Positions 1 to 22,016 of a DNA stretch of 32,000 nt are shown in pieces (position 1 is the first letter of the stretch; every line of letters starts with the position of its first letter). Origin of the DNA: Candidatus Methylomirabilis oxygeniifera (GTDB lineage: Bacteria; Methylomirabilota; Methylomirabilia; Methylomirabilales; Methylomirabilaceae); the NCBI GenBank assembly GCA_000091165.1, contig FP565575.1, forward strand, positions 780,001 to 812,000, given 5' to 3'. A program made the translations under genes and the position numbers. The notes beneath the pieces are model-generated. The model worked only from the letters and a program-made list of their open reading frames with translations, was not told the origin of the DNA and did no database searches.

Positions 1-1
1 A

Positions 2-385
2 ACCTGGACCGACGGGAGTCCGGCCATTGCCATGTTTCGGGTCGGCCAAGCCTGTGAACTGCACGCGGAATTCGCCATGCATCCGTTTGTGCCCGATAAA
101 AGCCGCGAAATATCGGTAGATGTTACGGTCAATGGTCTGCTGCTGGATACCTGGGTCTTCCGCGGACCCGACAGTATCGAGTCGCGAATGCGTTGCGTGC
201 GCATTCCCGAGGAGGTCATCGGCGAGGACGGCGCAATCTGGTTGGCGTTTACCATCAAGAACTCTCGCTCACCAAAGCAGCTCGGCTTGTCGGACCTGGA
301 TCCGCGTTCGCTCGGAATCGGATTGCGTGAGGTGACGCTGCGAGCGTGGAATGCGTCCATGACCGCGAAATGTTGTGTGCATTAA
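2..385 (+). CDS. 3' end of a gene entering from the left edge; only a C-terminal beta-rich module of unknown function is visible
   Basis: The frame is open from base 2, with no stop before the track ATG at 32 (reads TWTDGSPAIAMFRVG...). It ends with ...PKQLGLSDLDPRSLGIGLREVTL, the same W-T/S-x-G start and P-x-x-L/F-G-x-x-D-x-R-x-L-G end as ORF 3366..3833. Confidence 0.5.
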   Translation, partial: TWTDGSPAIAMFRVGQACELHAEFAMHPFVPDKSREISVDVTVNGLLLDTWVFRGPDSIESRMRCVRIPEEVIGEDGAIWLAFTIKNSRSPKQLGLSDLDPRSLGIGLREVTLRAWNASMTAKCCVH

Positions 386-444
386 TTGAGTGTACAAGCA
401 CGTATGGTTTTGGCAGGGGCGAATTCTGTTTCGGAGATTGAGCG

Positions 445-1686
445 ATGACTGACCCATTGCCAGACGAGCTATCGGAAGCCGAACGGGCCCGGCGCGCCTT
501 GATCCAATGGTCTCTGGACAAGAGCCACGTGAGACTCGGTAATATGGCCCGCTGGCACAAAGGGACGACTTATCGTCGCATGCCAGACAAGACACAACTA
601 AGCGCCATGGGCATGGATGCGCTGGGCGACGGCTGGTTGCCGGCCGAACCGCTGATTACCCCGGAGACGCGCGTGCTGGCGATCGGCAGTTGCTTCGCGC
701 GATATTTTATCCTCTGGCTTGCAGAACACGGCTTCAACAAAGCGGCCCCACAGTCGCCCTACAATGCGTTGCTGCGGTTTGGCTCCGATTTTGTAAGCCC
801 CGCCGTGGTTGCTCAGCAATTCCGCTGGGCGTTCGACGAACTGGATGACAAGGACGTTCTTTGGATCGGCAAGGATAAGAATATATTTGAGGCGACCGAG
901 GAGCGGCGCCAACTGGTGCGGGATACCTTGTTAGGGACCGAGGTTCTGCTTCTCACCTTGGGGCTGTCGGAGGTCTGGTACGACCGTGTTACAGGCGAAC
1001 CCTTGTGGCGGGCGCTTACGGAGGATCAGTTCGATCCCGAGCGCCATATCTTCCGGGTAGAGACGATGGCGCAAACGCTGCATTATTTGGAGACGATCGA
1101 GCGCTTGCGCGCGCAACACGTCCCAAACATGACGATCATATATACCGTCTCGCCGATTCGTCTCGCGGCGACGTTTCGGCCGGTATCCGCGTTGACCGCT
1201 AGCAGCGCCTCGAAGGCGATTGTGCGCGCGGCCCTGGACGAATTTCTGCGCAATCACCAGGACGGCTTACACCGAAACCTGTTCTATTTTCCGAGCTACG
1301 AACTCGTGACCGAATATTTTGTCGACCCCTACGAACATGATAATCGTCACATTTCGTCTACAGTGGCGGCAGGCATCATCCGTTACTTTGTCGCACACTA
1401 CTGTTCGGCTGACATGATCGAGCGTTCCGGGCGATCTTTGAATGATCTTGAGGGTGCAGGGCAGGATCTGGAGCGGTTCATTCAACAATCAAGAATTGCT
1501 GGTACCGACCCGCGGTCTGGCGAACTACTGGCTCGCATCGCCGAATTAGAGGGTAAGGTGGTCGACCTGCAGAAAATCTGCGATGAGCGGCAGGAAGTCA
1601 TCGTGGGTCTCGATCAGGCGGCGCGGGAACGGCTGGATCTCATTCACCGTCTCGACGCCGAGGTCAAGCGGATTCAAGGGCGGTGA
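445..1686 (+). CDS. GSCFA-family protein (SGNH-like hydrolase fold, function unknown) with C-terminal coiled coil
   Basis: 413-aa ORF carrying the eponymous motif LAIGSCFARYF. The C-terminal roughly 60 aa are heptad-rich and charged (ELLARIAELEGKVVDLQKICDERQEVIVGLDQAARERLDLIHRLDAEVKRIQ). Third codon positions are GC-rich. Confidence 0.8.
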   Translation: MTDPLPDELSEAERARRALIQWSLDKSHVRLGNMARWHKGTTYRRMPDKTQLSAMGMDALGDGWLPAEPLITPETRVLAIGSCFARYFILWLAEHGFNKAAPQSPYNALLRFGSDFVSPAVVAQQFRWAFDELDDKDVLWIGKDKNIFEATEERRQLVRDTLLGTEVLLLTLGLSEVWYDRVTGEPLWRALTEDQFDPERHIFRVETMAQTLHYLETIERLRAQHVPNMTIIYTVSPIRLAATFRPVSALTASSASKAIVRAALDEFLRNHQDGLHRNLFYFPSYELVTEYFVDPYEHDNRHISSTVAAGIIRYFVAHYCSADMIERSGRSLNDLEGAGQDLERFIQQSRIAGTDPRSGELLARIAELEGKVVDLQKICDERQEVIVGLDQAARERLDLIHRLDAEVKRIQGR

Positions 1687-1689
1687 CGG

Positions 1690-1890
1690 ATGCATTCTTG
1701 GTGTGCTATGCTTATTTGCCGAATATCATTCGCGCTGGCCGGCTTCCTCGGTATGCGATGGTGGCGTGGTAACTCCCGCTCTGGCAATGATCGAGCCGGC
1801 TTTTCCATCTTTTATCAATTTTCGGCTGCTTATGTAGGTGCCATTGTGGTCATGCCCCGCAATCCATTAGAAGCGCCCGATAGAAGATGA
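1690..1890 (+). CDS. small hypothetical ORF (66 aa) filling the GSCFA / radical SAM gap; candidate small membrane protein or peptide substrate
   Basis: The ATG lies 3 nt after the upstream TGA (1684-1686), and the stop overlaps the downstream ATG as ATGA (1887-1890). It has two hydrophobic stretches. GC3 is only about 47% by my count and no clear SD is present, so coding status is uncertain. Confidence 0.25.
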   Translation: MHSWCAMLICRISFALAGFLGMRWWRGNSRSGNDRAGFSIFYQFSAAYVGAIVVMPRNPLEAPDRR

Positions 1891-3224
1891 GCCCCGAGTT
1901 CATGTCAGTCGAGTTTCCGTGGAGCGTCGCACGGGATGCGGGGGTCGACATCGCGCTCAAGAAACCGTGGCTCGTCGGATCCAACCACCACTTTCTGCGT
2001 TTCGACTTCTACCCGCTTTTGTCCCCGTCGCACCCGAGCCGGCATCTGGCCTACTTCGACCTGCCTTTGGCAGACCTGGGCGGCCAGAACCTCCGGGCGA
2101 CCTTGTCGGGGAAGGTGTTGATTGTCAGCGACGCGATCCGATCGCACGCGGTCGGCGCAGTGTGGCTCGGGTCCCTGCCCTTCGCCGGCTACTGTCGGCT
2201 GACAGTGTCTCTCTGGAGCACTGAAGGTAACGCGCCCCGACAGATCGAGGCGATCATATCGGGGCCCATGATACTGTCCAGAGACGCGGACATGCCCTTG
2301 GAACGGATCATGGTGGCCATCACCCAGCGTTGCAACCTGAGTTGCCAGATGTGCACGCGGCAACAGGGAGCCGATTTCGATCAGACCGACATCCCATCCG
2401 ATGTCCTGGCGGCGCTGCTCGATGCGGCGTCCGAGTCGGTCTACGTCGGCCTGCAGGGGTTGGGCGAACCGCTTATGCACCGCGGTCTGTCCGGAATCGT
2501 CAGATCATTTCGCGCCCGGATACCCTCCGTCGGTCGTATCGCGCTCACCACCAACGGCACGGCATTGACCCGCGACCGCTCGGCACAACTGATTGCGGAA
2601 GGGCTGAACAGCATTACCGTGTCGATGGACGGCGCGACAAAGGCGAGCTATGAAGCGCGTCGAACCGGCGCCGACTTCGATCTGGTGATCAGGAATATTG
2701 CTGCTGCCGCCTCCTGCGTCCGAACGAGCGGCCGAGACGACGTCTGGATTGCCGCCAACTACATCATGGATCCGGGCAATCTGGCCGAGGTACCAGACTT
2801 CGTGCGACTCGCGGCCTCTCTCGGCCTGTGTGCGGTAAGTTTTTTCCACGGCCGCCTATATCCCGACATGCGGCTTGCCCCGCTGGATGTGCACGAGCTT
2901 TCTAAAATTCGGGTCGAAGCCCAGCGGGTCGGCGTGGACACCGGTGTAAATGTTCGCTTCGCGCGCTCCCGATCGACGCCGCCACCGCAGTGCCCGTTCA
3001 TGAACAGCGCCTATCTGTGGCTCACCGGCGAAGTCGTCGCCTGCGATCGAATGGAACCGCCCGGTCGACCATGGCCGACCCGTATCTTTGGCAACGTCCG
3101 CGAATCGCCGCTCGCTGAGATCTGGAACCGTCCCGAGTACCGGGCGTTCCGACAGGGAGTACTTTCGGAAAACCTGCCAGACGAATGCCGCGGCTGCACC
3201 TTCTGCGACAGTGTGGTCTGTTGA
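1887..3224 (+). CDS. radical SAM / SPASM-domain enzyme with a roughly 140-aa N-terminal extension
   Basis: CX3CX2C cluster motif in ITQRCNLSCQMC and Gly-rich GLQGLGEPL. The Cys-rich C-terminus is SPASM-like (CPFMNSAYLWLTGEVVACD...GNVRESPLAEIW...CRGCTFCDSVVC). The N-terminal extension has strongly GC-rich third positions, so it is translated. Confidence 0.85.
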   Translation: MSPEFMSVEFPWSVARDAGVDIALKKPWLVGSNHHFLRFDFYPLLSPSHPSRHLAYFDLPLADLGGQNLRATLSGKVLIVSDAIRSHAVGAVWLGSLPFAGYCRLTVSLWSTEGNAPRQIEAIISGPMILSRDADMPLERIMVAITQRCNLSCQMCTRQQGADFDQTDIPSDVLAALLDAASESVYVGLQGLGEPLMHRGLSGIVRSFRARIPSVGRIALTTNGTALTRDRSAQLIAEGLNSITVSMDGATKASYEARRTGADFDLVIRNIAAAASCVRTSGRDDVWIAANYIMDPGNLAEVPDFVRLAASLGLCAVSFFHGRLYPDMRLAPLDVHELSKIRVEAQRVGVDTGVNVRFARSRSTPPPQCPFMNSAYLWLTGEVVACDRMEPPGRPWPTRIFGNVRESPLAEIWNRPEYRAFRQGVLSENLPDECRGCTFCDSVVC

Positions 3225-3365
3225 AACGTCGAGCCCGAGCACCGCGATGCTTGGGCTCGTTGACCTCGCCTTTATACCCAACCATCATGGGAAGCCTACA
3301 AACGAAAGATTGGTGGGCAGTAGCCGGTCGAGTACGTCGCAGAGCATGCGGCCGTATCCGGACCG

Positions 3366-3833
3366 GTGCTGCCCGAGCTATACCACTACAGGTTCGACGA
3401 GATTCCTGAGGAACGGCTCATCGGCTTTCACGCCTTGGAACAATGGAAGGAGGAATCGTTTCGCTGGTCCGGCCCGGTGGCGACGGTTCGTGCGAGTCTC
3501 CTGAAGGCCTCGTACGAGGTCCGGATCGATACCCGATCCCTGCGAAGGGCTCCTGTCCCGCTCTGTCTTGGTGTGTTCTTTAACCGTTACGAGCTACCCG
3601 CGTCATCCGTTCGGTTCAAAGACGGCGTCGTATCGTTTTTGATTCAACCGTCTCTGTTTGTGGACGGTCTCGGGCAAGGACTGATCCTGACCTGCAATCC
3701 CGTGCGGCCATTGGAGTTCGGGGTACCGGATCATCGCGATCTGGGTCTGCCGATCTTCTCGATCGTTTTTCAGCAAGTCGACGAGGAAATCGAGGATGGC
3801 AGCCACGCGGCAAGTCAAGAACGTCGTATGTGA
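3366..3833 (+). CDS. stand-alone copy of the recurrent beta-rich module (hypothetical protein, 155 aa)
   Basis: GTG start. Contains GFHALEQWKEESFRWSGPVATVRASL ... VFFNRYEL ... PLEFGVPDHRDLGLPIFSIVF, which aligns by eye with the C-terminus of ORF 2..385. No catalytic domain is attached. Confidence 0.5.
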   Translation: MLPELYHYRFDEIPEERLIGFHALEQWKEESFRWSGPVATVRASLLKASYEVRIDTRSLRRAPVPLCLGVFFNRYELPASSVRFKDGVVSFLIQPSLFVDGLGQGLILTCNPVRPLEFGVPDHRDLGLPIFSIVFQQVDEEIEDGSHAASQERRM

Positions 3834-4005
3834 GAGAGTAGGTTATTATAGCTAATGCTATCGCATATACGTAGCAACGATATAATCGTGATATATACGG
3901 TGGTAATGCGATAAAAACAGGTATCAATGATAAAAGGCGCAGTACGTCAGTGTCACCGAGCAACAGAGAAATTCGACTTGACTCCCTACTCCGTTTCCAA
4001 GAGAA

Positions 4006-4014
4006 TGCTATAAT
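4006..4014 (+). promoter_or_regulatory. extended -10 promoter element (TGcTATAAT)
   Basis: Exact TGnTATAAT at 4006-4014 inside the AT-rich 3840-4030 spacer, upstream of the fcl remnant and hicBA. No good -35 at correct spacing (a TTGACT lies 25 nt upstream). Confidence 0.3.
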
Positions 4015-4031
4015 ATCGGGGGGATAGGTAA

Positions 4032-4313
<282 letters not shown>

Positions 4314-4424
4314 GTGGTCTTCGGCAGCTCAACGAAGCCGCCCTGGAGCGTCTCGTTGCTGTGAGTCGCCTGGGGATGGGCGGAAGGCTGCGGCTCAGTT
4401 GAGCTTTGGTGAAGGAGAGATGGT

Positions 4425-4670
4425 ATGCTTGCCGAGTATATCGATAAGGCGATGGAACAAGCTGTGTACGAGATCATCGAGGATGAGCGAACCTACTGGG
4501 GCGAGATTCCTGGTCTTCAAGGCGTGTGGGCACGTCATGCCACCTTGGAGGGATGCCGGCGTGAACTCCGCGAGACCGTGAGCGACTGGATTGCCTTGCG
4601 TTTGAGACTGGGTCTGCCGATTCCCGTCTTGGCCGGCATTGATTTGAATCAAATAACACAAGCTGCGTGA
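4425..4670 (+). CDS. hicB: HicB-like (UPF0150) type II antitoxin, short form
   Basis: 81 aa, ...YEIIEDERTYWGEIPGLQGVWARHATLEGCRRELRETVSDWI..., typical of the HicB N-terminal fold. It directly abuts the HicA-like ORF. Confidence 0.7.
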   Translation: MLAEYIDKAMEQAVYEIIEDERTYWGEIPGLQGVWARHATLEGCRRELRETVSDWIALRLRLGLPIPVLAGIDLNQITQAA

Positions 4671-4898
4671 GTGTCGCCAATGCCCCCGTTGGCGCCCGTC
4701 TCCTGGCGCGAACTGGTGAAACGGTTTCGGGAACTCGGTTTTGAAGGGCCGTATGCCGGTGGACGGCATCCCCAAATGCGACGGGTGGATGTGACCGTGG
4801 TTATCCCAAATCAACACGAAGGCGATATCGGCGTGGGGCTCTTGCAACGCATACTCCGTCAAGCTGGAGTATCCCGAGACGAGTGGCTAGGGCAATGA
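4671..4898 (+). CDS. hicA: HicA-family mRNA interferase toxin
   Basis: 75 aa, SWRELVKRFRELGFEGPYAGGRHPQMRR...VVIPNQHEGDIGVGLLQRILRQAGVSRDEW matches the YcfA/HicA pattern (G-x-H ... IP.H..i..G.l..IL.qaG). GTG start immediately after the hicB stop (alternative ATG at 4680). Confidence 0.75.
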   Translation: MSPMPPLAPVSWRELVKRFRELGFEGPYAGGRHPQMRRVDVTVVIPNQHEGDIGVGLLQRILRQAGVSRDEWLGQ

Positions 4899-4966
4899 GC
4901 GTATTGCTCGACAACGCTGCTTCAGATGTGACCATCCCTCCGGCTGCGGTTGTCGGCGGGATCGGG

Positions 4967-5059
4967 GCCGAACGCGAGTTCGGGTTCAAGGCTGCGACGT
5001 CGTTCGAGGTGGGATTGCGAAAAACCATTGAGTGGTATAAGGGCGCTCTCCCTTCATAA
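4967..5059 (+). pseudogene. fcl: second, shorter fcl 3'-end fragment (last roughly 30 codons)
   Basis: Translates [30 protein letters not shown]. About 70% nt identity by hand alignment to 4176-4250 of the first remnant. Confidence 0.6.
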
Positions 5060-5215
5060 GTCAGACAACGCAATCATGTGGAACCGTACGATTGCGAGGG
5101 CCCGGACGAGTACAGACTCGATCCACAAAACGAAGGGATTCCTTACTCCTGGGTGCCACGGGACCGATAACGGGTCCAGGTGACCTGTTCGGTCGAGTAA
5201 GGCAGGAAATCATCC

Positions 5216-6172
5216 ATGTCAAGCGACCAACCGCTCGTAACAATCGTTCTCCCGGCTCACAACCGGAGTAATGTCCTGGCATACGCCATTCGCTCGGTCC
5301 TCTACCAGACCTATCCGAACTTCGAGCTGATCGTTGCTGGGGACGGCTGCACCGACGATACCGCGGCCGTTGTTGAAGGATTCAAGGACTCACGGATTAC
5401 CTGGCTCGACCTTCCCAAGGGGTTCGGCTATGGGTATGAAAACCGAAACCGCGCATTGGAACGCGCCAGGGGTGAGTTGATCGCCTATCAGACGCACGAT
5501 GACCTCTGGTTCCCCGACCACCTGTCGTTGCTCGTTACGACCATCCTACGAGATGAGGGTGAGGTTGTGTATTCTCTTCCGATCCATGTTCTGCAGGATG
5601 GGACGGTATTTCAGCATCCATGCGACGTGCGACTTCCCTACTATCGGGAGATGCTGCTCAACGGAGATAATCGCATCGCGAGTATCAACCTCATGCACAG
5701 GCTGAGTGTCGTACGCGACGTGGGTGGCTGGGACGGACGACTCGCACGAAACGGCGTAATGGAGTACTGGCAGCGAATGCTCAAGATGGGAAAGAAGTTC
5801 TCCTACGTCCCAGTCCCAACGGCCTTGGGCTTCTTTGCCTCTCTTCGACCTCATGCGTATCGGGATCGCGATGAGCACGAACAGCGGGCCTACTACGAGC
5901 AGATCGTGGCCGACCCCGGTTGGGTGCACAACTTTCGACAACGGATGGCGGGAGATCTGGGGCGGAGATTTATGGAGCAGGAGGCCAATCTGGCGGCGCG
6001 ACTGGCCGTAATTAACGAATTGACGACTGCCGTACGCGCCTTCGAAGTAGACCGCACGGCGTTACTGAATAGATTAGCTCAGCTTGAGAACAGTGTGCCC
6101 TTCAGGCCCTTCGAATTGTTCCGGAACGTGGCTCGGCGCCTGGCGAATAGGCGTCAGGAGACAACAGGATAG
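5216..6172 (+). CDS. family 2 glycosyltransferase with C-terminal coiled coil
   Basis: [42 protein letters not shown] and HDD (DxD-like) motifs. The C-terminal tail is heptad-like ([38 protein letters not shown]). Confidence 0.85.
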
Positions 6173-6225
6173 GCTGGAGGGATGAAGAAAGACCGGATAT
6201 TCGCCGGACTGATTGCGATCAAGCG

Positions 6226-6798
6226 ATGAACGCGAACGGTTACGGGTTCACCTTGTGGTTTACCGGCCTTTCCGGATCGGGCAAGACGACCTTGGCTCGT
6301 CTGGTGGAACGGGAATTGCTGACCAGAAAACTGAAAGTTGAAGTGCTGGATGGCGATGTGGTTCGCCAGAATCTCTCAAAGGGGTTAGGCTTCAGCAAGG
6401 AAGACCGCGATACGAATATCAGGCGGATCGGCTTTGTCTGTAACCTGCTTGGCCGTAATGGGGTCATCGCCATCGCTGCGGCTATATCGCCCTATCGCAC
6501 TGTACGCGACCAGGTCCGCGCCTCTCAAGACAGCGGCCGCTTCGTCGAGGTGTTCCTCGATTGTCCGATCGAGGCGTGTATTCAACGCGATGTCAAGTCG
6601 CTGTATCGGAAAGCCCTCACCGGCCAGGTTGAGAACTTTACCGGAGTATCCGATCCATATGAGCCTCCTGAACACCCCGAGGTTGTTCTCCACACTGACC
6701 AGGAGACCGAGGAGCAGAGTACAGCAAAGATTTTGGCGTGGTTGGAAGAGAGGGGCTATGTGCTACCCAACGTGATGACGGATGCCTCACATCAATAA
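6226..6798 (+). CDS. cysC: adenylylsulfate (APS) kinase, makes PAPS
   Basis: P-loop in [46 protein letters not shown] and AAISPYR motifs. The 190-aa length is typical of stand-alone CysC. Confidence 0.9.
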
Positions 6799-6852
6799 TG
6801 CACTATGTTTTGAAGACTCACAGAATCGCCTTAGGCAGCGAGTGGTATTCTT

Positions 6853-9072
6853 ATGATTCTAGATAAGGAAGAACTCATATTCATACATATTCCACGCACA
6901 GGTGGGACGAGCATAGAGGTAGCACTCGCCGGAAAAGACTGGTGGCTTATTGATCCAGAAACAAAGCATCTCAGCGCAAGTATGTCCAGGAAACTTGTTG
7001 GAGAGAAGAAATGGAGTCGGTACTTTAAGTTCGCAATAGTAAGGAATCCTTTCGATAGAATAATTTCAATGTATGCAACTGGTTGGTGGTGGAAGGCGGG
7101 CTCCAATTTCAATAACACCCGCCCCCCGTCACTCAGAGAGTTCGTTGAAAGGCTTTCTCTGCATCCGTCTGAAAAGTCCAACTCGAAGTTTTACTACCAG
7201 ATTTTGGATGAACAACTGAATTTTGTTGGTAGGTATGAGAGTCTGGAAGTAGATTTCCAGTACATATGCAATCGTGTCGGGTTATCGGTTAAAACGCTGC
7301 CTCACGTTGAAAGAAGAGTAAGAGAGCATTACTCCGTTTACTACGATGAGGAAACGGCTGATAGGGTTGCTCAAATATATAAAACAGATATTGCATTGTA
7401 TGGGTATAGTTTCGATAGAAGATTCAATTTTGATCCAGAGGCAATCAAAAGATTAGGGGCCGTGATCGAACAGCGGGAAGCCCTCGAGGCTGTGACGGCC
7501 GACCGTGATAGTTGGGAGGCCCGCTACCAGGGGCTTGCGACCGAAGCAGAGCGCCGACGGGAGGCGCTGGAGGCTGTGACGGCCGACCGCGATGCCTGGG
7601 AGACCCGCTACCAGGGGCTTGCGACCGAGGCAGAGCGCCGACGGGAAGCCCTCGAGGCTGTGACGGCCGACCGTGATAGTTGGGAGGCCCGCTACCAGGG
7701 GCTTGCGACCGAGGCAGAGCGCCGACGGGAGGCGCTGGAGGCTGTGGCGACACAATTGGATGCGGTGACTCAAAGGTTTTCCTCAACAATTCCGGAAGAG
7801 CCAGGGACATCGGATGAACAGGGTGCGGAAAGTCAACTTGCGCCAAAGCCCGCAGCTCCTCCCTACGCCACTGTGACCCCGGTAGGTCCCCTGGTGTCGA
7901 TTATCACGCCGTCGTATAACCAGGGCCGTTTTATCGAAGAAACCATCCTGAGTGTCCTGACCCAGGATTACCCCAACATTGAGTATATTGTCATGGATGG
8001 CGGCTCAACCGACAACACCTTGGATATCCTGAAGAAGTACGAAGGGCGGCTCACCTGGATCTCCGAGGCTGATCGGGGCCAGTCGCACGCCATCAACAAG
8101 GGCTTCCAAATGGCGAAGGGCGAGGTCCTGGCCTGGCTGAACTCCGATGACACCTACCTTCCGGGAGCGATCAGTAAAGTCGTACAACATCTCCATACCC
8201 ACCCCGAGGCGATGATGGTGTACGGGGAGGGATACCTCATCGACGAGCAGAGCCGTATCACGAGGCGGTTTCCGTATACAGAGGCGTTCAACCTGTGGAA
8301 GCTTATCTATCTGTGGGATAACATTCTTCAGCAGGCGGCTTTCTTTCGACGCCAGGTCTTCGATCGTATCGATCTGCTGGACGAGAACCTTCACTACGGA
8401 ATGGATTGGGATTTGTGGATCAGGATCGGCAAGAAGTTCCGAGTCGATTACATCCCGGAGTATCTGGGCAATCTTCGCGAATACTCGGAAGCCAAGACCT
8501 TTTCCGGGGGCACTACGCGCTTTAATGAGCTGGTATCCTTGATGAGGCGGCATGGGAATCGGCGATTCCCTCCAGGATATTTTACCTATGGCTTCGGTAC
8601 CTACAACAGACGTGTGTTTGGCCGCCTGGCGCATCAATATCCACACGCGTACCGGTTCTTATTTTCGATGCCACGCCTGTTAGGCCAGCGCGTCTGCAGC
8701 CTGATAACACGCTATCTGGTGAACCATTCCCAGGGGTACTACAGTGACGGTTGGGCCTCGCCGAAAGCCCATTTCTCGCTGGCGAATCTCGGCCAGGTGT
8801 CTTCCCTGAGACTTGAGGGCGAACTTCCCAACTTGCGGCCCGACTACCGGACCGCGATCCGCGCCAAGCTCAACGGCCGCCCCATTGGAGATCCGATTAC
8901 CGTCGTTCCGGGAAACTTTACACTGGAATGGGTCATCCCGCAGGAGATGCGATCCTCAGACGTATTTGAGGTGACACTGCTCTCAACTCGCTGGCATCGC
9001 CCCTCACTGACCGGCGCTAATGCCGATCGCCGCAGGTTAGCCTACCGAGTGACGCGGATTTCTGCCGAGTAG
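6853..9072 (+). CDS. multidomain sulfotransferase (family 2) / tandem-repeat coiled coil / GT2 glycosyltransferase / C-terminal DGW module
   Basis: N-terminal domain: PAPS 5'-PSB motif IHIPRTGGTS, RNPFDRIISMY and GRYESLEVDF. Residues about 208-300: three 28-aa repeats. GT2 domain: VSIITPSYNQGRFIEETILSVLTQDYPNIEYIVMDGGSTDNT ... LNSDD. C-terminal module: YYSDGWASPKAHFSL ... ADRRRLAYRVTRI. Confidence 0.85.
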   Translation: MILDKEELIFIHIPRTGGTSIEVALAGKDWWLIDPETKHLSASMSRKLVGEKKWSRYFKFAIVRNPFDRIISMYATGWWWKAGSNFNNTRPPSLREFVERLSLHPSEKSNSKFYYQILDEQLNFVGRYESLEVDFQYICNRVGLSVKTLPHVERRVREHYSVYYDEETADRVAQIYKTDIALYGYSFDRRFNFDPEAIKRLGAVIEQREALEAVTADRDSWEARYQGLATEAERRREALEAVTADRDAWETRYQGLATEAERRREALEAVTADRDSWEARYQGLATEAERRREALEAVATQLDAVTQRFSSTIPEEPGTSDEQGAESQLAPKPAAPPYATVTPVGPLVSIITPSYNQGRFIEETILSVLTQDYPNIEYIVMDGGSTDNTLDILKKYEGRLTWISEADRGQSHAINKGFQMAKGEVLAWLNSDDTYLPGAISKVVQHLHTHPEAMMVYGEGYLIDEQSRITRRFPYTEAFNLWKLIYLWDNILQQAAFFRRQVFDRIDLLDENLHYGMDWDLWIRIGKKFRVDYIPEYLGNLREYSEAKTFSGGTTRFNELVSLMRRHGNRRFPPGYFTYGFGTYNRRVFGRLAHQYPHAYRFLFSMPRLLGQRVCSLITRYLVNHSQGYYSDGWASPKAHFSLANLGQVSSLRLEGELPNLRPDYRTAIRAKLNGRPIGDPITVVPGNFTLEWVIPQEMRSSDVFEVTLLSTRWHRPSLTGANADRRRLAYRVTRISAE
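7474..7746 (+). repeat. in-frame tandem repeat, 84-bp unit x about 3.25 (copies at 7474, 7558, 7642, partial 7726)
   Basis: Copies 1 and 3 differ at one synonymous base (gaa/gag). Copy 2 and partial copy 4 share an alternative codon set (cgggaggcgctggag), so the latest duplication unit is 168 bp. Encodes REALEAVTADRD(S/A)WE(A/T)RYQGLATEAERR. Confidence 0.9.
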
Positions 9073-9179
9073 GCGATTGCTCACACGGCGCATTGCTATG
9101 AACGAGTCCGGAAGCAATTCGGCGGGAGACGCACGCCGCAGCACTGCGAGCGGAAACGAGCCAAAGAGAGGTGTGTGTG

Positions 9180-10439
9180 ATGACAGGGAGTCCTGTGATC
9201 TCAACCCATAATGTCGTTCGAGAACGTATGGATACTTTTATCGTCGTATGCGATAGGGACATTAAGCTACTACGACATTTCTTCTTGAGTTACGAACTCT
9301 TTTTCAGATCACCCGGAAGGATTTATCTCTTTATCTCAAGGAAAGATAAACCTCTGTTAGATCTTGTGCGAAAACCCAAGAATCTTGTGGTGTTGTACAA
9401 AGATGATGTGCCGGACTTGGGCGAAGATGATTTCCGTAATCAGATGTACTTGAAAATGATTGCGGACCGCTATGTGGAAACGGACTGGTTCTGGGTTCCA
9501 GATGCGGACTATCTTATTTGCTCTCCAATTCAAGCCTCTGACTTTATGAGGAGCAAAGTCCATGGCCCCTTGTGGTTTTATCGGAATTGGGATGGTGGTC
9601 CGCCAGAACAATCTTGGCGACAAGGATCCGAGCGGTTTTTGAGAGAAACGATCCCTTTTCTTTTCATGGATGCGGCAGAATATATTATGAATAAAAATAT
9701 ACTGGTCAATTTTAGAGAACTCCATGATCTGGACGACCTGCTGGTTCCTTCTCTAAAGACAAGTGAATTTATTGTGTATGGCGCCTTTGCCCACAGGTTG
9801 TATCACGATTACTATAAATGGATCGATCTTGACAGTGACTCACAAACAAGCTTGGCCTACAAGGTGAACCAGCGCCCACCAACGTATTGCGAACTGGATG
9901 AAGACGTCAATTTATCTTCGATGGGTAGCGCAAAGTATGCGGTTTTCTGGTCTCACTGGGATAAATCCGAGCAGAAAATGGTGGAATTTCTCATTGACGC
10001 ACAGATTCGTGAATTCGGGGAAGTGCGAGTTGAGCCCGACACTCAACCCTTATACCTTGCACTCAAAACTGGCAGCTTATCACGCGATGACTTTATTGCT
10101 ATTGGCGGAGCATATTCGGACGGTTGGGTAAAAACGGAGTCGGCGTTCCATCTTACGGTTCCTATGCCTTGCGAACTTGTACTCAAGCTTGAGGTGCCGT
10201 TGTGTTTGGCGCATAACACAACGAGGTTATCTCTTCAAGCAGACGACACGGTTCGAAATTTTACGTTCACCAAGAGACATCATATGTTGCGCATTCCCCT
10301 TAAGTCAGACATCGATAACATTGTTCGCTTGAATTTCTTCGGGGGGATAGCAGAACCTAACGGTGGGCGAAGATTGTATGCTCAACTTACCCAAATGTTT
10401 GTACAGCCGTATGGCTGGAATCCACTGCGGCGAACCTAA
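9180..10439 (+). CDS. hypothetical protein, possible GT-A-like (DxD) transferase, with C-terminal DGW module
   Basis: Long ORF in AT-richer DNA. The ATG at 9180 lies about 9 nt after AAAGAGAGG; the track GTG at 9171 is an alternative. Contains FIVVCDRD... and WFWVPDADYLI (DxD-like). C-terminus: YSDGWVKTESAFHL ... GGRRLYAQL. The catalytic assignment is weak. Confidence 0.6.
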   Translation: MTGSPVISTHNVVRERMDTFIVVCDRDIKLLRHFFLSYELFFRSPGRIYLFISRKDKPLLDLVRKPKNLVVLYKDDVPDLGEDDFRNQMYLKMIADRYVETDWFWVPDADYLICSPIQASDFMRSKVHGPLWFYRNWDGGPPEQSWRQGSERFLRETIPFLFMDAAEYIMNKNILVNFRELHDLDDLLVPSLKTSEFIVYGAFAHRLYHDYYKWIDLDSDSQTSLAYKVNQRPPTYCELDEDVNLSSMGSAKYAVFWSHWDKSEQKMVEFLIDAQIREFGEVRVEPDTQPLYLALKTGSLSRDDFIAIGGAYSDGWVKTESAFHLTVPMPCELVLKLEVPLCLAHNTTRLSLQADDTVRNFTFTKRHHMLRIPLKSDIDNIVRLNFFGGIAEPNGGRRLYAQLTQMFVQPYGWNPLRRT

Positions 10440-10451
10440 AGGATTCTAAAT

Positions 10452-13259
10452 ATGATGGCATTTTCGATAACACTTCTTTTATTTCTGTATTTCGCGATCG
10501 TTGGTTATGCGATGTTACAAGCATTTCCATCAAGGCTTAAGCCTGCGCTCAACTTACTCATTGCCCCAGCAATCGGTCTGTGCGCGACACTATTGCCGGT
10601 GTTCTACCTTAACCGGTTCGGTATGCCGGTGAAGAGTTTTTCAATATACCTTACTTTAGCTCTTCTTACATTGTCGGCACTTGTCTTATTCAACAATAGA
10701 CCGATCATAGCAAGGCGAAGAGTTGTGGTCGTTTCGGTTTTAGGTCTTCTGATATTGCTGCTGACCTCATGGCCGATGCTGTTCTACGGATTGGATTGGG
10801 TGGCCGTAGGTAATGATGATATGGCGAACTACTGCCTTGCGGCGCAACGGTTCTATCATGAGGGTTTTTTTGATAAGCCGGACATTCTACATATTAAAAA
10901 TGGGTCAAATTACTCGCAGGCATATTGGTTTATGCATGTTGCAGGCGGAGTAAGGCCAGGCAGTGAATTGATGCTTGCATGGGCATGGAGTGTCACCGGC
11001 ATTGAGGCGCCCAGAATCTTTATGTCGGTAATCTCCACATTGCATCTTTGTCTGGCTTTTGCTGTTTCGGGTCTGGCGGCAATGGCAACAAAAAGAAGAC
11101 GGGTATGGCAGATTGCATTGCTGCTATTTGCCATAAACCCACTATCGTCTTGGGGAGTGCATCAACAATTAATTGGTCAGGTTGGAGGCCTCCTGTTGCT
11201 GGTTGTGTCAATAAGCTTACTGTTTCGCGACGCCAGACAATCTACTCCCGGCACAACCATCAGAGGCTTAGTTGTGCCGGTAATGACGATTGGCGGATTG
11301 TTAATCTGGTACCCGGAAGGGTTACCCTTTTTGGGATTGAGCTGGATCATTTTCTTGATTGCAAGCGTGTTGTTTTTGAGGCGTTCCATTCGACCGATTG
11401 TGGTCTATGCCCTAATCCTTGGGGCGCTTGTGATTCTGGCGTTACCTCAATACGGTATCAGCGCCGTTAAATTCATGTTGGCTCAATCGAGATCGGTTGG
11501 AGCAGGAGTAAAAGGTGACCCGACCGGATTATTGTTTCCATATTTTTTGGTTCCAACTGGAATCGCCGCTTTCTGGGGACTTATTCCCGTTCATAGAGGT
11601 ATACCTTCTGAGCCTATAGCCTCCTCGGTTTTTATCGTGGCGCTCACACTTATGTTGTTGCTTGGAAGGCTGCTAGTCAGAGGTATAAAGGAGAAGAACC
11701 CCAGCGCTTGCGTGTTGGTCGTCATGTGCATATTGGCGTTGGCTCTTTACGGAAACATGAACGACTTCGGCTTATATAAGCTTGCCATGTATGCGCAGCC
11801 GTTCGTCATCGCTCTACTGGCATCCTCGTTTCATCAGATCACCCTCAGGCCAATGTGGGTGTTATATCTACTCCTGGTTGTCGTGCTACCCCCTCAGATA
11901 GTTAGCCAATTTTCCTATACGTACAGATCAACAGGAGAAGCACCTGGTAGCGCAGTTGAAATCCAGCACGGATCATCAAAAAAGGTGCTGAGCCAGCTTA
12001 AGACTTTCTTTGAGCGGCTTACCGTAGAATCTTCCAACAAGAACGAACAATTTGTATCGCCGGTTGATAATGTTGTTCTCGCAAAATTGATGGCATTCTA
12101 TTCTCGTGGGTTACAAATCATCTTCACCTCACGAGACTTTTTTGGAGGGATAGCCTCGTTTGCGGATACGCCGGTTCTTTATTCCGAGTATTCTAAGGAC
12201 CGGATGAGAGTCGAATCTTCTTTATATACTGGAAGGAAAATATACCTGGATGGCCAGGAAGTAAATTTCTTTGTGCCATCCGTGCTCAATTCAAGGGCGG
12301 AAGGATTTAGAACTATTGTTGCGTGCAACCAGGGAGCTATTTCGTCGCCTTGTAGTGGTGCGTTACACATTTTAGATTCTAAAGAGACGAGCCCCGTGAG
12401 CTTTATACATTCAGATATTGGCAGCCACTACTACTCGGGCAATAGAAAGAATGCTTCGTTCTTTCAGGCTGAATCGGATATATATTTTCCGGGTGTGTTT
12501 CATTCTTTTGGACGTTATGCGTTAATTCAGGCGCTCGGCGATATTGATAATGCGAGATTCGTATTTGATCTGAGCGGAACGCTTCAGAAGAAACGAGGCG
12601 CGTCGCTCGCAACTGTTACTATCAGCACCGAAAAGACCTCTGCGCCTTTCCGATTTGTTGGCAGAGGATCCGGCCGAATATATAGTGATCCCATTGATCT
12701 GAAGTCATTTGAATACCTGTTGATAGATATGAATATCGTTCCGGAGACATTTCGTAGCAAGAAAACGTTACTCAGATTTGTGTACGGTAGTGACGTATTA
12801 ATCGATATGAGACGTCTTACTCACTTTGTTCGAAAATTTGGAGTACTGGCGAATACGGAGTACCAGGCGCTGAAGCCGCCTCATGCGCTCTCCAAATTCC
12901 CCGCGAATCTCGCTGATCCTGGGCTGGAATATTCCGGCCTCTACGAAGACGGCTGGATTTCCGAACGCTCGTTTTTCGTACTCACCCCCAAGCCGGATAC
13001 TCGCTATCTGGTGATTAAGGGTATGGTGCCGCAGATTGACGCACCAGACTTTCGCAACACGCTAACGGTGAGTATTGATGGTCGGGAAGTCGTCAAACAG
13101 CCCCTTGGCCTTGGTACCTTCGAAGTCAAGGCGCCGGTCTCGGTAAACGGCCAACGTCACCGAATAGATCTTGCCTTCGACCGCTACCAGGTGCTACCTG
13201 GCGCGGATGGACGTCCGACGAGCGGTAAGGTTGCATTCATTGGTTTCACGAGGGATTGA
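10452..13259 (+). CDS. large polytopic membrane protein (about 14 TM) with soluble C-terminal half; candidate GT-C-type glycosyltransferase or glycan polymerase
   Basis: Residues 1 to about 480 form consecutive hydrophobic helices. There is an acidic loop motif after TM4 (GLDWVAVGNDDMANY), as in GT-C first-loop DxD/DD motifs. The soluble domain is about 450 aa and ends with the YEDGWISERSFFVL ... module. AAGGA sits 9 nt upstream of the ATG. Confidence 0.75.
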   Translation: MMAFSITLLLFLYFAIVGYAMLQAFPSRLKPALNLLIAPAIGLCATLLPVFYLNRFGMPVKSFSIYLTLALLTLSALVLFNNRPIIARRRVVVVSVLGLLILLLTSWPMLFYGLDWVAVGNDDMANYCLAAQRFYHEGFFDKPDILHIKNGSNYSQAYWFMHVAGGVRPGSELMLAWAWSVTGIEAPRIFMSVISTLHLCLAFAVSGLAAMATKRRRVWQIALLLFAINPLSSWGVHQQLIGQVGGLLLLVVSISLLFRDARQSTPGTTIRGLVVPVMTIGGLLIWYPEGLPFLGLSWIIFLIASVLFLRRSIRPIVVYALILGALVILALPQYGISAVKFMLAQSRSVGAGVKGDPTGLLFPYFLVPTGIAAFWGLIPVHRGIPSEPIASSVFIVALTLMLLLGRLLVRGIKEKNPSACVLVVMCILALALYGNMNDFGLYKLAMYAQPFVIALLASSFHQITLRPMWVLYLLLVVVLPPQIVSQFSYTYRSTGEAPGSAVEIQHGSSKKVLSQLKTFFERLTVESSNKNEQFVSPVDNVVLAKLMAFYSRGLQIIFTSRDFFGGIASFADTPVLYSEYSKDRMRVESSLYTGRKIYLDGQEVNFFVPSVLNSRAEGFRTIVACNQGAISSPCSGALHILDSKETSPVSFIHSDIGSHYYSGNRKNASFFQAESDIYFPGVFHSFGRYALIQALGDIDNARFVFDLSGTLQKKRGASLATVTISTEKTSAPFRFVGRGSGRIYSDPIDLKSFEYLLIDMNIVPETFRSKKTLLRFVYGSDVLIDMRRLTHFVRKFGVLANTEYQALKPPHALSKFPANLADPGLEYSGLYEDGWISERSFFVLTPKPDTRYLVIKGMVPQIDAPDFRNTLTVSIDGREVVKQPLGLGTFEVKAPVSVNGQRHRIDLAFDRYQVLPGADGRPTSGKVAFIGFTRD

Positions 13260-13260
13260 T

Positions 13261-13998
13261 ATGAACACAACCACACTTTCGAATTCTTGGCCCAAGTCGC
13301 TTCCGGTACTGAGTGAAGAGCAAGAACGGATTCGTAAAGATTTCATGAATCATTGGCTCGAAGTCTTACCAAATCGCTATGGGTTGATTGAGAAATTCAA
13401 TCACCAATATCCGCTTCGGACGTTAGCCGCTGGAGTCAGAACCCTCGAGATCGGTGCTGGTCTAGGCGCACACCTGCGTTTTGAAAATCTGGAGATACAG
13501 CGAGAATATGTCGCACTTGAATTGCAACCCGAATTGGCAAAGATTATAGATGCCTCCTATCCAGCGGTCCGTGTGGCTGTCGCGGATTGCCAGGAACAGA
13601 TTGATTTCTCAGATGGCCACTTTGATCGGATACTGGCCATTCACGTACTGGAGCACCTGCCCAACCTACCGAAAGCGCTGAACCAGATGCAGCGTTTATT
13701 GAGTCCGACTGGTTTCTTTTCCGTCGTTATTCCCTGTGAGGGTGGGCTGGCGTATAGGATGGCGCGAAATATTTCAGCCCGCCGGATTTTCGAAAAACGT
13801 TATAAGCAGAGTTATGATTGGTTCGTGGCATGCGAACATATCAACTTACCCGATGAGATTCTTTCTGAGCTGCGTTCCCGTTTCTCGATCATCCACCAAG
13901 CGTATTGGCCTCTCGGGATTCCGATTGTCAACTTCAATCTCGCTATAGGGTTAACATTGACGCATCTCACTCCTCCCAAGGCAACGAGTTGCAAATGA
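13261..13998 (+). CDS. class I SAM-dependent methyltransferase
   Basis: Motif I VRTLEIGAGLGAH and post-I/II FDRILAIHVLEHLPN...LLSPTGFFSVVIP. The ATG lies 1 nt after the upstream TGA, so the longer track ORF from 13171 is unlikely. Confidence 0.85.
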   Translation: MNTTTLSNSWPKSLPVLSEEQERIRKDFMNHWLEVLPNRYGLIEKFNHQYPLRTLAAGVRTLEIGAGLGAHLRFENLEIQREYVALELQPELAKIIDASYPAVRVAVADCQEQIDFSDGHFDRILAIHVLEHLPNLPKALNQMQRLLSPTGFFSVVIPCEGGLAYRMARNISARRIFEKRYKQSYDWFVACEHINLPDEILSELRSRFSIIHQAYWPLGIPIVNFNLAIGLTLTHLTPPKATSCK

Positions 13999-14936
13999 CC
14001 TCAGATAAGCCAGACCTCTCGGTTGTGGTGCCGGTATATAAAGAAGAGGCGAATGTCCCGCCTTTTCTCGAGCGGCTTGAGGCAGTCCTCAAGCGAATGG
14101 GGGGGTCCTATGAGATTCTCTTCTGTCTTGATCCATCTCCGGATAGGACAGAAGAGGTGATCATGCGGGCTATTGATCGTAATCCGAACATTAAGCTCCT
14201 TGTATTTTCCCGGCGATTCGGCCAGCCGGCGGCCACGATGGCAGGTCTCCTGATGTGCCATGGAGCGAGCTGCGCGGTGATTGATGTGGACTTGCAGGAT
14301 CCTCCCGAATTGATCGGCGACATGTACAAGAAGCTCCTGGATGGGTACGAGGTGGTATATGCCAAGAGACGATCGCGCAAAGGCGAGACCCTGATAAAAC
14401 GCATAGTGGCGAGAATGGGATACTGGCTGATTGCCAGGCTGAGCGACGTGGAGATCCCGCGTGATACGGGTGATTTCCGCATCATGACGCGCCGGGTGAT
14501 CGAGGAGTTGCGACGTTTGAATGAGATGCACGGGTTTCTACGTGGGCTGGTGGCATATGTGGGGTTTAGGCAGACGTTCATAGAGTACGATCGCGACGAA
14601 CGGGCTCATGGGCAGGGTAATTACAATCGCTTTGTGGGTTCGCTGAAGATCGGGCTCAACGGTCTCATTAGCTTCAGCAGCAAGCCTTTGCAGTTGATGT
14701 CCATCACCGGCGCTCTGTTCGCCGGATTCAGTTTTCTGTTGGGTGCCTGGTATGTTTTACAGAAGCTGATCGGCGTTGCGCTTACGCCCGGACTGTCCAC
14801 CACCGTACTGGTCGTCTCGTTTTTTGCAGGAATACAGCTTCTATCTCTGGGACTCATGGGAGAGTACATCGGACGGATCTACGACGAGGTCAAGCGTCGC
14901 CCGATGTTTATCATCGATCGAAAAATCAATTTCTGA
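13995..14936 (+). CDS. GT2 polyprenyl-phosphate glycosyltransferase (GtrB / ArnC / DPM1-like)
   Basis: LSVVVPVYKEEANV, VIDVDLQDPPE and RDTGDFRIM motifs, plus two C-terminal TM helices (LMSITGALFAGFSFLLGAWYVL and TTVLVVSFFAGIQLLSLGLMGEY), the classic GtrB architecture. The ATGA overlap with the methyltransferase stop suggests translational coupling. Confidence 0.85.
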   Translation: MTSDKPDLSVVVPVYKEEANVPPFLERLEAVLKRMGGSYEILFCLDPSPDRTEEVIMRAIDRNPNIKLLVFSRRFGQPAATMAGLLMCHGASCAVIDVDLQDPPELIGDMYKKLLDGYEVVYAKRRSRKGETLIKRIVARMGYWLIARLSDVEIPRDTGDFRIMTRRVIEELRRLNEMHGFLRGLVAYVGFRQTFIEYDRDERAHGQGNYNRFVGSLKIGLNGLISFSSKPLQLMSITGALFAGFSFLLGAWYVLQKLIGVALTPGLSTTVLVVSFFAGIQLLSLGLMGEYIGRIYDEVKRRPMFIIDRKINF

Positions 14937-14952
14937 GAGTGGAGATCAGCGC

Positions 14953-15909
14953 TTGCGTTACTTCGTTACAGGAGCGGCCGGCTTTATCGGGAGCAACCTG
15001 ATAGATCGATTACTTCTCGATGGCCATGAGGTAGTGGGTTACGATAATTTCTCTACTGGGCAGCCAGAGTTTCTGGCGGGGGCACAGCAGTCGACCTTTT
15101 TCAACCTCGTGTCTGGCGATACACTCGATCAGGAGTATTTGATTCGGGCAATGAAGGGCGCAGATTTTGTCGTCCATCTGGCAGCCAATGCGGATGTGCG
15201 TTTCGGTATGGACCACCCGCGTAAGGACTTAGAACACAATACGATTGCCACCTTCAATGTATTGGAAGCAATGCGCGCCAATGATATTCGCCGAATTGCC
15301 TTTTCTTCCACAGGCTCCATTTACGGTGAGCCGGACATCTTTCCTACACCCGAAGACGCACCCTTCCCCATCCAAACATCGCTCTATGGCGCGTCCAAGT
15401 TGGCCGCTGAAGGGCTGATTGCAGCTTACTGTGAAGGATTTGGTTTTCAGGGGTATATCTTTCGCTTCGTGTCCATCTTGGGCGAACGTTACACGCACGG
15501 ACATGTCTTTGACTTTTACAAGCAACTGCGCGACCATCCCGACACACTACACGTGCTGGGGAACGGCAAGCAACGCAAGTCATACCTGTACGTGCGGGAT
15601 TGTATTGACGCCATGCTTCTAGCGATCGAGCAGGCGCAAGGCAAGATCAACATTTTCAATCTGGGTACAGACGAATATTGTCAGGTGAATGATTCTATCG
15701 GCTGGATTTGCGAATACTTGGGCATTTCTCCGCACCTCATATATGCAGGCGGTGAACGCGGATGGGTGGGGGACAGCCCGTTCATCTTTCTGGACTGCTC
15801 AAGAATCAGGGCGTTAGGCTGGAGGCCACAGTTGACCATTCGTGAGGGTATTATTAGAACGTTGCAATACTTGGAACAGAATCCATCGACTCTGGAACGA
15901 CGGCACTAG
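14953..15909 (+). CDS. NAD-dependent epimerase/dehydratase (extended SDR) acting on a nucleotide sugar
   Basis: VTGAAGFIGSNL Rossmann motif at the N-terminus and catalytic YGASKLAAE. TTG at 14953 is the only start that avoids a long overlap, and GGAG lies 8 nt upstream. Confidence 0.8.
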   Translation: MRYFVTGAAGFIGSNLIDRLLLDGHEVVGYDNFSTGQPEFLAGAQQSTFFNLVSGDTLDQEYLIRAMKGADFVVHLAANADVRFGMDHPRKDLEHNTIATFNVLEAMRANDIRRIAFSSTGSIYGEPDIFPTPEDAPFPIQTSLYGASKLAAEGLIAAYCEGFGFQGYIFRFVSILGERYTHGHVFDFYKQLRDHPDTLHVLGNGKQRKSYLYVRDCIDAMLLAIEQAQGKINIFNLGTDEYCQVNDSIGWICEYLGISPHLIYAGGERGWVGDSPFIFLDCSRIRALGWRPQLTIREGIIRTLQYLEQNPSTLERRH

Positions 15910-15919
15910 ACTCGTCTCT

Positions 15920-16825: not shown

Positions 16826-16826
16826 G

Positions 16827-17804: not shown

Positions 17805-17837
17805 CTGTAATAATAGAACGTCTGGGAGGTTTACACC

Positions 17838-18038
17838 ATGCTGAGCACTTTGAAAATGGAAGTACATTCTGCCGCAATCATTGCAGCGGTCAAGAGAATG
17901 AAGAAGGATGAGCGAGAGGCGTTTTTGGAAGACCTGTTGGCATCAACATCACCTGAGTATCTCGCAAGTATCAAAGAAGCTCGGCAACAATACAAAGCCC
18001 GAAAAGTGCGCACCCATGAAGAGGTCTTTGGCCGGTGA
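17838..18038 (+). CDS. putative type II antitoxin (family not recognised) paired with the RelE/ParE toxin
   Basis: 66 aa, GGGAGG 8 nt upstream of the ATG, stop overlapping the toxin GTG (GTGA). Assignment rests on position and size only. Confidence 0.55.
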   Translation: MLSTLKMEVHSAAIIAAVKRMKKDEREAFLEDLLASTSPEYLASIKEARQQYKARKVRTHEEVFGR

Positions 18039-18292: not shown

Positions 18293-18330
18293 ATCCGCGT
18301 TTCGTTGCCGGTCTATGGAGTCGTGAGACT

Positions 18331-20027: not shown

Positions 20028-20041
20028 AGAAGGGGTCATGT

Positions 20042-21911: not shown

Positions 21912-22016
21912 AACCCGGATGGTCCCGCCTGTCGGAGAAGGGACCAGCCCGGTACGAGTAGGATTTACGGAGCTACCGCAGGTGGCTCCATCGGACGCGT
22001 CACGAGGAGCACTCAC

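Follow-up and report, generated by a model that had tools for sequence, protein, structure and literature searches.

Why do enzymes of unrelated chemistry, encoded side by side in one polysaccharide-synthesis cluster, share a β-rich segment? The question is raised by a 32,000-nucleotide stretch of DNA from the methane oxidizer Candidatus Methylomirabilis oxygeniifera (M. oxyfera; contig FP565575.1, positions 780,001 to 812,000; hereafter, the window), in which an initial annotation, made from the sequence alone, had described one β-rich module, in two flavors, on at least five proteins. The motif strings quoted there were all found where they had been placed. The module is present at the C terminus of a family 4 glycosyltransferase (GT4; protein A), in the product of a stand-alone open reading frame (ORF; protein D), and at the C termini of a sulfotransferase–family 2 glycosyltransferase (GT2) fusion (protein G), a smaller protein (H), and a polytopic membrane protein (I). 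It is ~120 residues long; the copies of A and D represent type 1, and those of G, H, and I represent type 2. The five copies are located as follows.

2..349, plus strand: module A, type 1, the part within the window (residues 393–508 of the 519–amino acid GT4)
3417..3782, plus strand: module D, type 1 (residues 18–139 of the 155–amino acid ORF 3366..3833)
8713..9066, plus strand: module G, type 2 (residues ~621–738 of the 739–amino acid protein)
10095..10397, plus strand: module H, type 2 (residues ~309–409 of the 422–amino acid protein)
12927..13250, plus strand: module I, type 2 (residues ~826–933 of the 935–amino acid protein)

The ORF at 2..385 carries a type 1 module, as had been proposed, but is not a separate ORF: it is the C terminus of the GT4. 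The full GT4 gene was taken from positions 5461..7020 of the matching contig WBTX01000003.1 (locus L001; a window position equals the L001 position minus 6635). In the complete protein, module A spans amino acids (aa) 368 to 508, its first ~25 aa, including GFSIPEDWG, lying upstream of the window; over this span, it matches its own family with an hhalign probability of 99.9%.

Type 1 copies (A and D) start with G-F/W-x-x-x-E...W-T/S-x-G and end with S-P-x-x-L-G-x-x-D-x-R-x-L-G. Type 2 aligns with type 1 over the full length; its first hairpin is ~10 residues shorter (G-x-Y-x-D-G-W), but the N-G turn is retained, as is the D-x-R...hydrophobic last strand. When D was aligned with its relatives (60 sequences, numbering of D), W34, D122, and R124 proved invariant, and conservation was 90% or higher at G20, E25, N73, P115, G119, L126, and G127. 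All of these residues, which form the conserved core of the DUF7024 family considered below, are present in A. Of the same core, N-G and D-R-R-R-L remain in G; D-G-W, D-G-R, and D919/R921 in I; and D-G-W and R-R-L in H. Among 49 members of the I family, Y831, E832, D833, G834, W835, D919, and R921 are invariant.

Profile comparisons relate the five segments

When single sequences were compared, only the type 2 copies could be related to each other. For their C termini, blastp yielded E values of 1.6e-8 (G and I), 6.6e-6 (H and I), and 1e-3 (G and H, a 16-aa motif only), with pairwise similarity located mainly within the first ~50 residues. A phmmer search against 425 ORFs of the locus recovered the type 2 trio at 4e-5 to 1e-2. 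With both methods, A and D matched neither each other nor the G/H/I trio, and a five-sequence MAFFT alignment was uninformative. These negative results favor an alternative according to which there is no common module, the likeness being a generic alternating pattern of unrelated β-rich segments. The failed A–D and type 1–type 2 links are, however, a sensitivity limit, not evidence of unrelatedness.

Since single sequences relate only the type 2 trio, we built profiles. Word-indexed homolog searches each returned only 3 to 13 close relatives. The A-family profile comprises 315 domain copies from the 150 best HMMER relatives, and the I-type profile comprises 90 copies from the loci of a genome scan for the I family. 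When the 425 six-frame ORFs of the extended locus were searched with the A-family hidden Markov model (HMM), the C terminus of G (E = 8.7e-4) and D (E = 4.9e-3) were the two best non-self matches, each covering nearly the whole model. In hhalign comparisons, the A family matched the D family with 96.3% probability over 117 columns (93.8% for D as a single sequence), G with 92.5% over 110 columns, and a nine-sequence I family with 80%. The 90-copy I profile matched G with 97.8%, H with 94.6% (101 columns), and the A family with 92.8%. Compared to the A family directly, H yielded 1.6%, equal to the shuffle level; H is tied in only via I and G. Scores of the real comparisons were 39 to 73, while reversed and column-shuffled controls scored ≤21, with probabilities of ≤3.1% (≤1.5% in the controls for H versus the I profile). 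When 31 proteins of the extended locus were compared, the type 1 profile singled out only A, D, and G, and the type 2 profile only G, H, and I.

Because these profile links lie well above the reversed and shuffled controls, it is very nearly certain, as far as sequence comparison can tell, that all five segments are homologous and represent copies of one ancient domain. The alternative of unrelated β-rich segments is already contradicted by the scores, by the full-length alignments and shared invariant residues, and by the bridging sequences and common predicted fold described below; we regard it as extremely improbable. Thus, the proposal of one β-rich module on five proteins with different catalytic domains is borne out. 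An absence of profile-profile similarity, which had been named in advance as the outcome that would speak against it, is not what was seen, the five segments being linked at hhalign probabilities of 92 to 98%.

A possible sixth copy had also been suggested, at the N terminus of the radical SAM/SPASM enzyme of the same cluster.

1887..2291, plus strand: N-terminal extension of the radical SAM/SPASM enzyme (aa 1–135), proposed sixth copy, unsupported

This segment produced the highest background score in the locus with the A-family profile (20 to 21 over 41 columns), and the alignment lies at FPWSVARDAGVDIAL, where the first hairpin of a module would be expected. Its hhalign probability against the A family was, however, 9.2 or 3.9%, compared to 2.2% for the best shuffle; values of 0.1 and 0.3% were obtained with the I profile and the D family, and the D-x-R-x-L ending is absent. 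No usable homologs of this N terminus for profile building came from the metagenome scans. We consider it quite improbable that these 135 residues are a very divergent sixth copy. Since a copy on the radical SAM enzyme is unsupported, the argument that the module is also found on redox enzymes falls with it.

Relation of the module to the DUF7024 family

The initial annotation could not assign the module to a named family, and direct Pfam and NCBIfam scans of the module segments yielded nothing. An exhaustive HMMER search with a four-sequence A-module profile, conducted on cluster representatives at 50% identity, revealed 2395 relatives at E ≤ 1e-3, of which 379 remain at a cutoff of 1e-10. 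A family name is nevertheless available, as 25 of 62 full-length relatives of the A module exceed the Pfam threshold for PF22895 (DUF7024), with a best E value of 1e-74. Protein A itself matches the model along just 18 residues, at 15.4 bits (E = 0.017; gathering score, 24.4 bits), and D, G, H, I, and the radical SAM N terminus have no match to PF22895 even at E ≤ 10. Yet, while the window copies fall below the gathering score, they are, by the profile criteria given above, significantly homologous to bona fide members. On these comparisons, A and D are divergent but otherwise ordinary copies of the DUF7024 type. The remaining three, G, H, and I, represent a divergent sister branch for which Pfam has no model; 0 of 49 I-family proteins match the DUF7024 model. 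Common to DUF7024 and the module are an all-β domain of ~140 residues, a start of the form GW/F-S-x-P-E..G-x-W-T, a V-N-G turn, an S-P..L-G.S.D.R.L-G end, and a position C-terminal to envelope-glycan enzymes, often in tandem. What sets the window copies apart is the score shortfall of all five and the ~10 first-hairpin residues missing from type 2.

In the relatives of the A module, the domain (~135 residues) is present once or in tandem arrays of up to six copies, and it usually follows the catalytic region. Fusion partners among the 62 full-length relatives include Sulfatase-type domains (10), GT4 (6), and GT1, DUF6311, NTP_transf_5, AlgX-like SGNH (ALGX), and phosphodiesterase domains (4 each), as well as GT2, PMT_2, and TMEM260-like domains. 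These partner enzymes build or decorate envelope glycans.

As to the type 2 branch, a genome scan with the I-family alignment detected the C-terminal motif SG[IL]YEDGW in at least 141 species, Yersinia alsatica and Bradyrhizobium diazoefficiens among them. Several sequences bridge the two types. The ortholog of G in locus L052 starts with GYYQDGW, as in type 2, ends with TADTRDLGFQLKSI, as in canonical type 1, and matches the A-family HMM at 2.3e-8. The ortholog of H in L012 keeps LDTRQL. Last, L016 contains a 457-aa minus-strand Sulfotransfer_2 ORF with a C-terminal D-like type 1 module (…FRWSGPG…IDERYLGIALTRIEI), so the combination of a sulfotransferase with the module recurs as well, although this copy is of type 1 and that of G is of type 2. 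None of the bridging modules (L052, L016, and L012) was recognized in a Pfam scan. The L016 ORF adjoins an I-family gene in a Chloroflexia metagenome-assembled genome (MAG).

Predicted fold

A β-sandwich or carbohydrate-binding module (CBM)–like fold had been anticipated for the segments, and it was recovered in two confident AlphaFold2 models. The model of D, computed from D plus the A-family alignment, is a β-sandwich with a predicted local distance difference test score (pLDDT) of 91.1 and a predicted template-modeling score (pTM) of 0.81; the model of I residues 790 to 935, computed from a type 2–only alignment, has eight strands (pLDDT 90.8, pTM 0.82). Both are approximately eight-stranded sandwiches of the same strand order, with the start motif in strands 1 and 2 and the D-x-R loop directly before the last strand. 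The module is thus predicted to be a single eight-stranded β-jelly-roll domain of the DUF7024 superfamily.

Foldseek searches of the Protein Data Bank (PDB) with the two models gave overlapping lists that contain CBM35 (2w47, 4qb1/4qaw), CBM6 (2cdp, 1uxx, 1gmm), MiXBM (7ehg), the carbohydrate-binding domains of BcsB (7l2z, 9fmt, 5eiy_B), and Est2A (3u37). The best solved matches for both models were CBM6 and CBM35, with template-modeling (TM) scores of 0.38 to 0.53 and E values of 5e-3 to 5e-2; on these models, the module is of the same fold class, which is insufficient for membership, and none of the five copies matches a CBM family model in Pfam. BcsB domains, matched by both models (7l2z, 9fmt, 5eiy_B, 4hg6_B), are jelly rolls of the periplasm and guide a nascent polysaccharide; they differ in domain context, and their likeness to the module is a fold-level match only (TM ~0.4, 13 to 16% identity). 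A sequence search of the PDB with the family profile returned only a nonsignificant match to the LecB lectin (E = 0.58).

Protein I and the two sides of the membrane

The body of protein I and the synthase encoded two genes downstream are located as follows.

10452..12926, plus strand: body of protein I, from family-averaged hydropathy, lysine/arginine (K/R) counts, and alignment
13995..14936, plus strand: GT2, PgfS/ArnC-like polyprenyl-phosphate sugar synthase by NCBIfam, two genes 3′ of I

Protein I has 14 to 15 hydrophobic segments in aa 1 to 485, then a soluble region of ~340 aa, and then the module. A conserved 86-aa loop after the fourth transmembrane segment is acid-rich and K/R-poor and contains N121/D123 and a near-invariant NDDMANY; R168, Q239, Q243, G246, Y287, and E289 are invariant in the family. 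Its members are ~950 aa long, and their ~450-aa soluble C-terminal region ends in one or two modules, two tandem modules being present in the members from L012, L029, L030, L067, L071, L072, L075, L082, and L083. Across the 49 members, the body has no Pfam match except for a weak one to GtrII in a single protein, and it has no sequence match in the PDB. The K/R counts favor a periplasmic C terminus, provided that the weak 11th hydrophobic segment is not transmembrane. In contrast, proteins A, D, G, and H have neither a signal peptide nor a transmembrane segment and are therefore presumably cytoplasmic.

Over its full length, the GT2 encoded at 13995..14936 matches the NCBIfam models of PgfS (1e-68) and ArnC (5e-44), in neither case reaching the equivalog cutoff, and is probably a polyprenyl-phosphate sugar synthase. 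Such a synthase could supply the lipid-linked donor for a periplasmic GT-C–type reaction. Judging from its acidic NDD loop, the number of transmembrane segments, and the neighboring synthase, protein I resembles a GT-C enzyme. Together, I and the PgfS/ArnC-like GT2 would then form a two- or three-component extracytoplasmic glycosylation system, like that described in PMC11127046. In the GT-C enzyme EmbC (PMC3044687) and in GT136 ORF12 (residues 503 to 652; PMC11127046), a C-terminal CBM binds the acceptor polysaccharide. As in I, a polytopic membrane transferase is followed there by a β-rich extracytoplasmic domain; the likeness noted here is one of architecture, and the GT-C class of protein I is itself deduced.

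Inheritance of the modules and their gene neighborhoods

In several phyla (L028, L034, L039, and L052), I-family genes are adjoined by ORFs of ~400 to 430 aa that consist of a GT2 domain and a type 2 module and are orthologous to residues 345 to 737 of G (E ~1e-115). In L012, an ortholog of H (from position 393) adjoins the I-family gene. In 11 of 79 loci, two or more ORFs bearing the module lie within 4 kb. Given these pairings in other phyla, the combination of module-bearing genes is a recurring unit. Compared to its orthologs, the M. oxyfera GT2 (G) has additionally gained the N-terminal sulfotransferase and a coiled coil.

When modules were compared across phyla, the closest relative of each was that of the orthologous protein elsewhere and not one from the same cluster. 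For example, G versus its L034 counterpart gave 36% over 114 aa and I versus its L005 counterpart 74%, compared to ~31% over 52 aa for G versus I. The modules therefore appear to be old and inherited with their enzymes, and recent domain shuffling within the cluster was rejected. On the initial suggestion that the modules gather the enzymes on one substrate, such inheritance is neutral, a common ligand being neither favored nor excluded by it.

What the module may do

From its fold and its fusion partners, we propose that the module is probably a CBM-like, acceptor-binding accessory domain, though with a good deal of room for other roles. Support comes from the fold neighbors and from the fusion to glycan enzymes. 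The noncatalytic module would bind the growing or finished glycan, i.e., the acceptor, through a putative site formed by the invariant acidic residue, Trp, Asn, and Asp-x-Arg, and would thereby raise the local glycan concentration at the catalytic domain; tandem arrays would bind the glycan multivalently. In the M. oxyfera cluster, modules would tether the GT4, the sulfotransferase-GT2 fusion, the probable GT-A–like protein H, and the GT-C–like membrane enzyme to a sulfated glycan, and D would be a free copy of the putative binding domain.

A precedent for an intracellular CBM is provided by Wzt, whose cytoplasmic CBM reads the O-antigen terminus (PMC9445017). Like the module, this C-terminal domain is a β-sandwich; it recognizes a nascent lipid-linked glycan in the cytoplasm and, unlike the module, is attached to an ATPase and not to transferases. 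No module has a Pfam match to Wzt_C (PF14524), and this domain is absent from the top 50 fold matches. CBM6, CBM35, and MiXBM are of similar size (125 to 135 aa) and, like the module, are noncatalytic appendages of carbohydrate-active enzymes. They show no sequence relationship to it, conservation of their Ca2+ and ligand sites in it is not demonstrable, and they sit on secreted glycoside hydrolases, whereas the module sits on biosynthetic transferases that are mostly cytoplasmic.

Several observations weigh against acceptor binding. The CBM likeness is at the fold-class level only (TM 0.4 to 0.53, identity 6 to 17%, E = 4e-4 to 5e-2), and jelly rolls serve other roles too. The claim of a common fold comes from strand order and shared PDB matches. 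No solved structure is a sequence relative of the module family, and a literature search returned nothing on DUF7024. H lacks the Asp of D-x-R (GGRRL), which its L012 ortholog has. Finally, four modules are presumably cytoplasmic and that of I is, by a crude prediction, periplasmic; with modules on both sides, a common ligand would have to exist on both membrane faces.

The last point bears directly on a different proposal, in which the ligand of the module is not the glycan but the surface of the membrane or the polyprenyl-(pyro)phosphate carrier. Transferases that are otherwise soluble would thus be anchored, on either face, where the lipid-linked acceptor is. Only the membrane and the lipid carrier are common to both predicted compartments, the substrates of all partner enzymes are lipid-linked or close to the membrane, and the conserved Arg and Trp suit phosphate and interface binding. 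However, arrays of two to six copies reach hundreds of residues past a membrane-embedded enzyme, which fits a flat membrane poorly, and the fold neighbors bind soluble polysaccharides. We consider membrane or carrier binding unlikely.

The same sidedness speaks against protein-protein docking or oligomerization, whereby like modules would pair with like and bring the enzymes together at the membrane in one multienzyme complex, D serving as adaptor or competitor: the module of I is probably periplasmic and the others are cytoplasmic. Up to six tandem copies on a single protein point to multivalent ligand binding more than to pairwise docking, CBMs are the nearest folds, and the invariant E/D, W, N, and D-x-R resemble a small-ligand site, not an interface. 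Docking would suit the presence of the module on five proteins of one cluster, one of them free-standing, the proximity of module-bearing GT2 and I-family genes in other phyla, and the frequent edge-to-edge pairing of β-sandwiches; on balance, we give it little credence.

A more specific form of ligand recognition would make the DUF7024-like module a dedicated reader of one product-specific feature, e.g., a sulfated or methylated glycan or the lipid-pyrophosphate end, common to the cytoplasmic and periplasmic enzymes. The whole assembly line would then be addressed to the same polymer, and D would be a soluble competitor or chaperone tuning chain length or hand-over. This possibility is a doubtful one; if true, it would provide a functional assignment for a family of more than 2000 clusters.

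Under the favored acceptor-binding reading, the module is a catalogued kind of accessory domain and not a new system, its type 2 branch being unannotated. DUF7024 is a large family found on many kinds of envelope-glycan enzymes, with no function assigned, and the cluster, with five copies, two subtypes, and one small stand-alone protein, is a good entry point into it. The type 2 branch extends the family to a widespread family of ~950-aa membrane proteins and its partner GT2. If glycan binding holds true, thousands of polysaccharide-synthesis enzymes could be better annotated, and the module would be a biosynthetic counterpart to the CBMs of degradative enzymes.

Features of the surrounding cluster

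According to the ORFs and a Pfam scan of the window, positions 1..23000 constitute one plus-strand polysaccharide-synthesis cluster. Its gene content is as follows.

2..385, plus strand: C terminus of the 519-aa GT4
Between the GT4 C terminus and the radical SAM gene, plus strand: GSCFA protein
1887..3224, plus strand: radical SAM/SPASM enzyme
3366..3833, plus strand: stand-alone ORF D, 155 aa
3′ of ORF D: inserted HicB/HicA pair (4425–4898), then a GT2 gene
6226..6798, plus strand: adenylylsulfate (APS) kinase (Pfam APS_kinase, E = 3.8e-61)
6853..9072, plus strand: protein G, 739 aa (Sulfotransfer_2, coiled coil, GT2, module; Pfam domains outside the module)
9171..10439, plus strand: protein H, 422 aa, without a significant family match
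10452..13259, plus strand: protein I, 935-aa polytopic membrane protein
3′ of I: methyltransferase, then the PgfS/ArnC-like GT2, then sugar-nucleotide and heptose genes

Judging from its family match, the APS kinase would provide 3′-phosphoadenylylsulfate (PAPS) for the sulfotransferases of the cluster. S-layer glycosylation was considered as the role of the cluster but is less likely: no glycans were seen on the S-layer of M. lanthanidiphila, a related species (PMC8671808), which makes lipopolysaccharide, capsule, or exopolysaccharide the more likely product.

Relatives of D (P0002 to P0004, 208 to 240 aa) have an N-terminal extension of ~55 to 85 residues. In the interval from the radical SAM stop codon to the start codon of D, a GTG (3225–3365), similarity to these relatives begins at 3327, directly after a stop codon. 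Upstream of this position, the frame common to the radical SAM gene and D contains three in-frame stops, and the stretch faintly resembles the N terminus of the relatives (AWAR*/AMARC, SWEAY/SYRAY). D may be an N-terminally decayed gene with an intact β-sandwich.

In G, an 84-bp tandem repeat (7474–7746; 3.2 copies, 89% matches) is located between the sulfotransferase and GT2 domains and encodes 28-residue, i.e., four-heptad, units, REALEAVTADRDSWEARYQGLATEAERR. The heptad repeat is reminiscent of coiled-coil “rulers” in O-antigen chain terminators such as WbdD, and its copy number could vary between strains. The N-terminal ~300 aa of H (9171–10094) have no significant family match; weak matches are to Glyco_tranf_2_4 for H (E = 0.052) and to DUF6492 for its L012 ortholog (E = 0.006).

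The HicB-like protein (UPF0150, E = 2e-30) and HicA toxin (E = 2e-13) are encoded in mid-cluster, within the otherwise empty stretch 3834–5215, and a second toxin-antitoxin–like pair (Polbeta/HepT) is located upstream, at L001 2427–3254. Across genes H and I (9001–13000), the G+C content is 0.455 to 0.482, compared to 0.53 to 0.63 in the flanks; this drop suggests that the pair was horizontally acquired. The closest homolog of I that we found, at 66% over the C-terminal 146 residues, comes from a MAG labeled Asaia bogorensis (L005).

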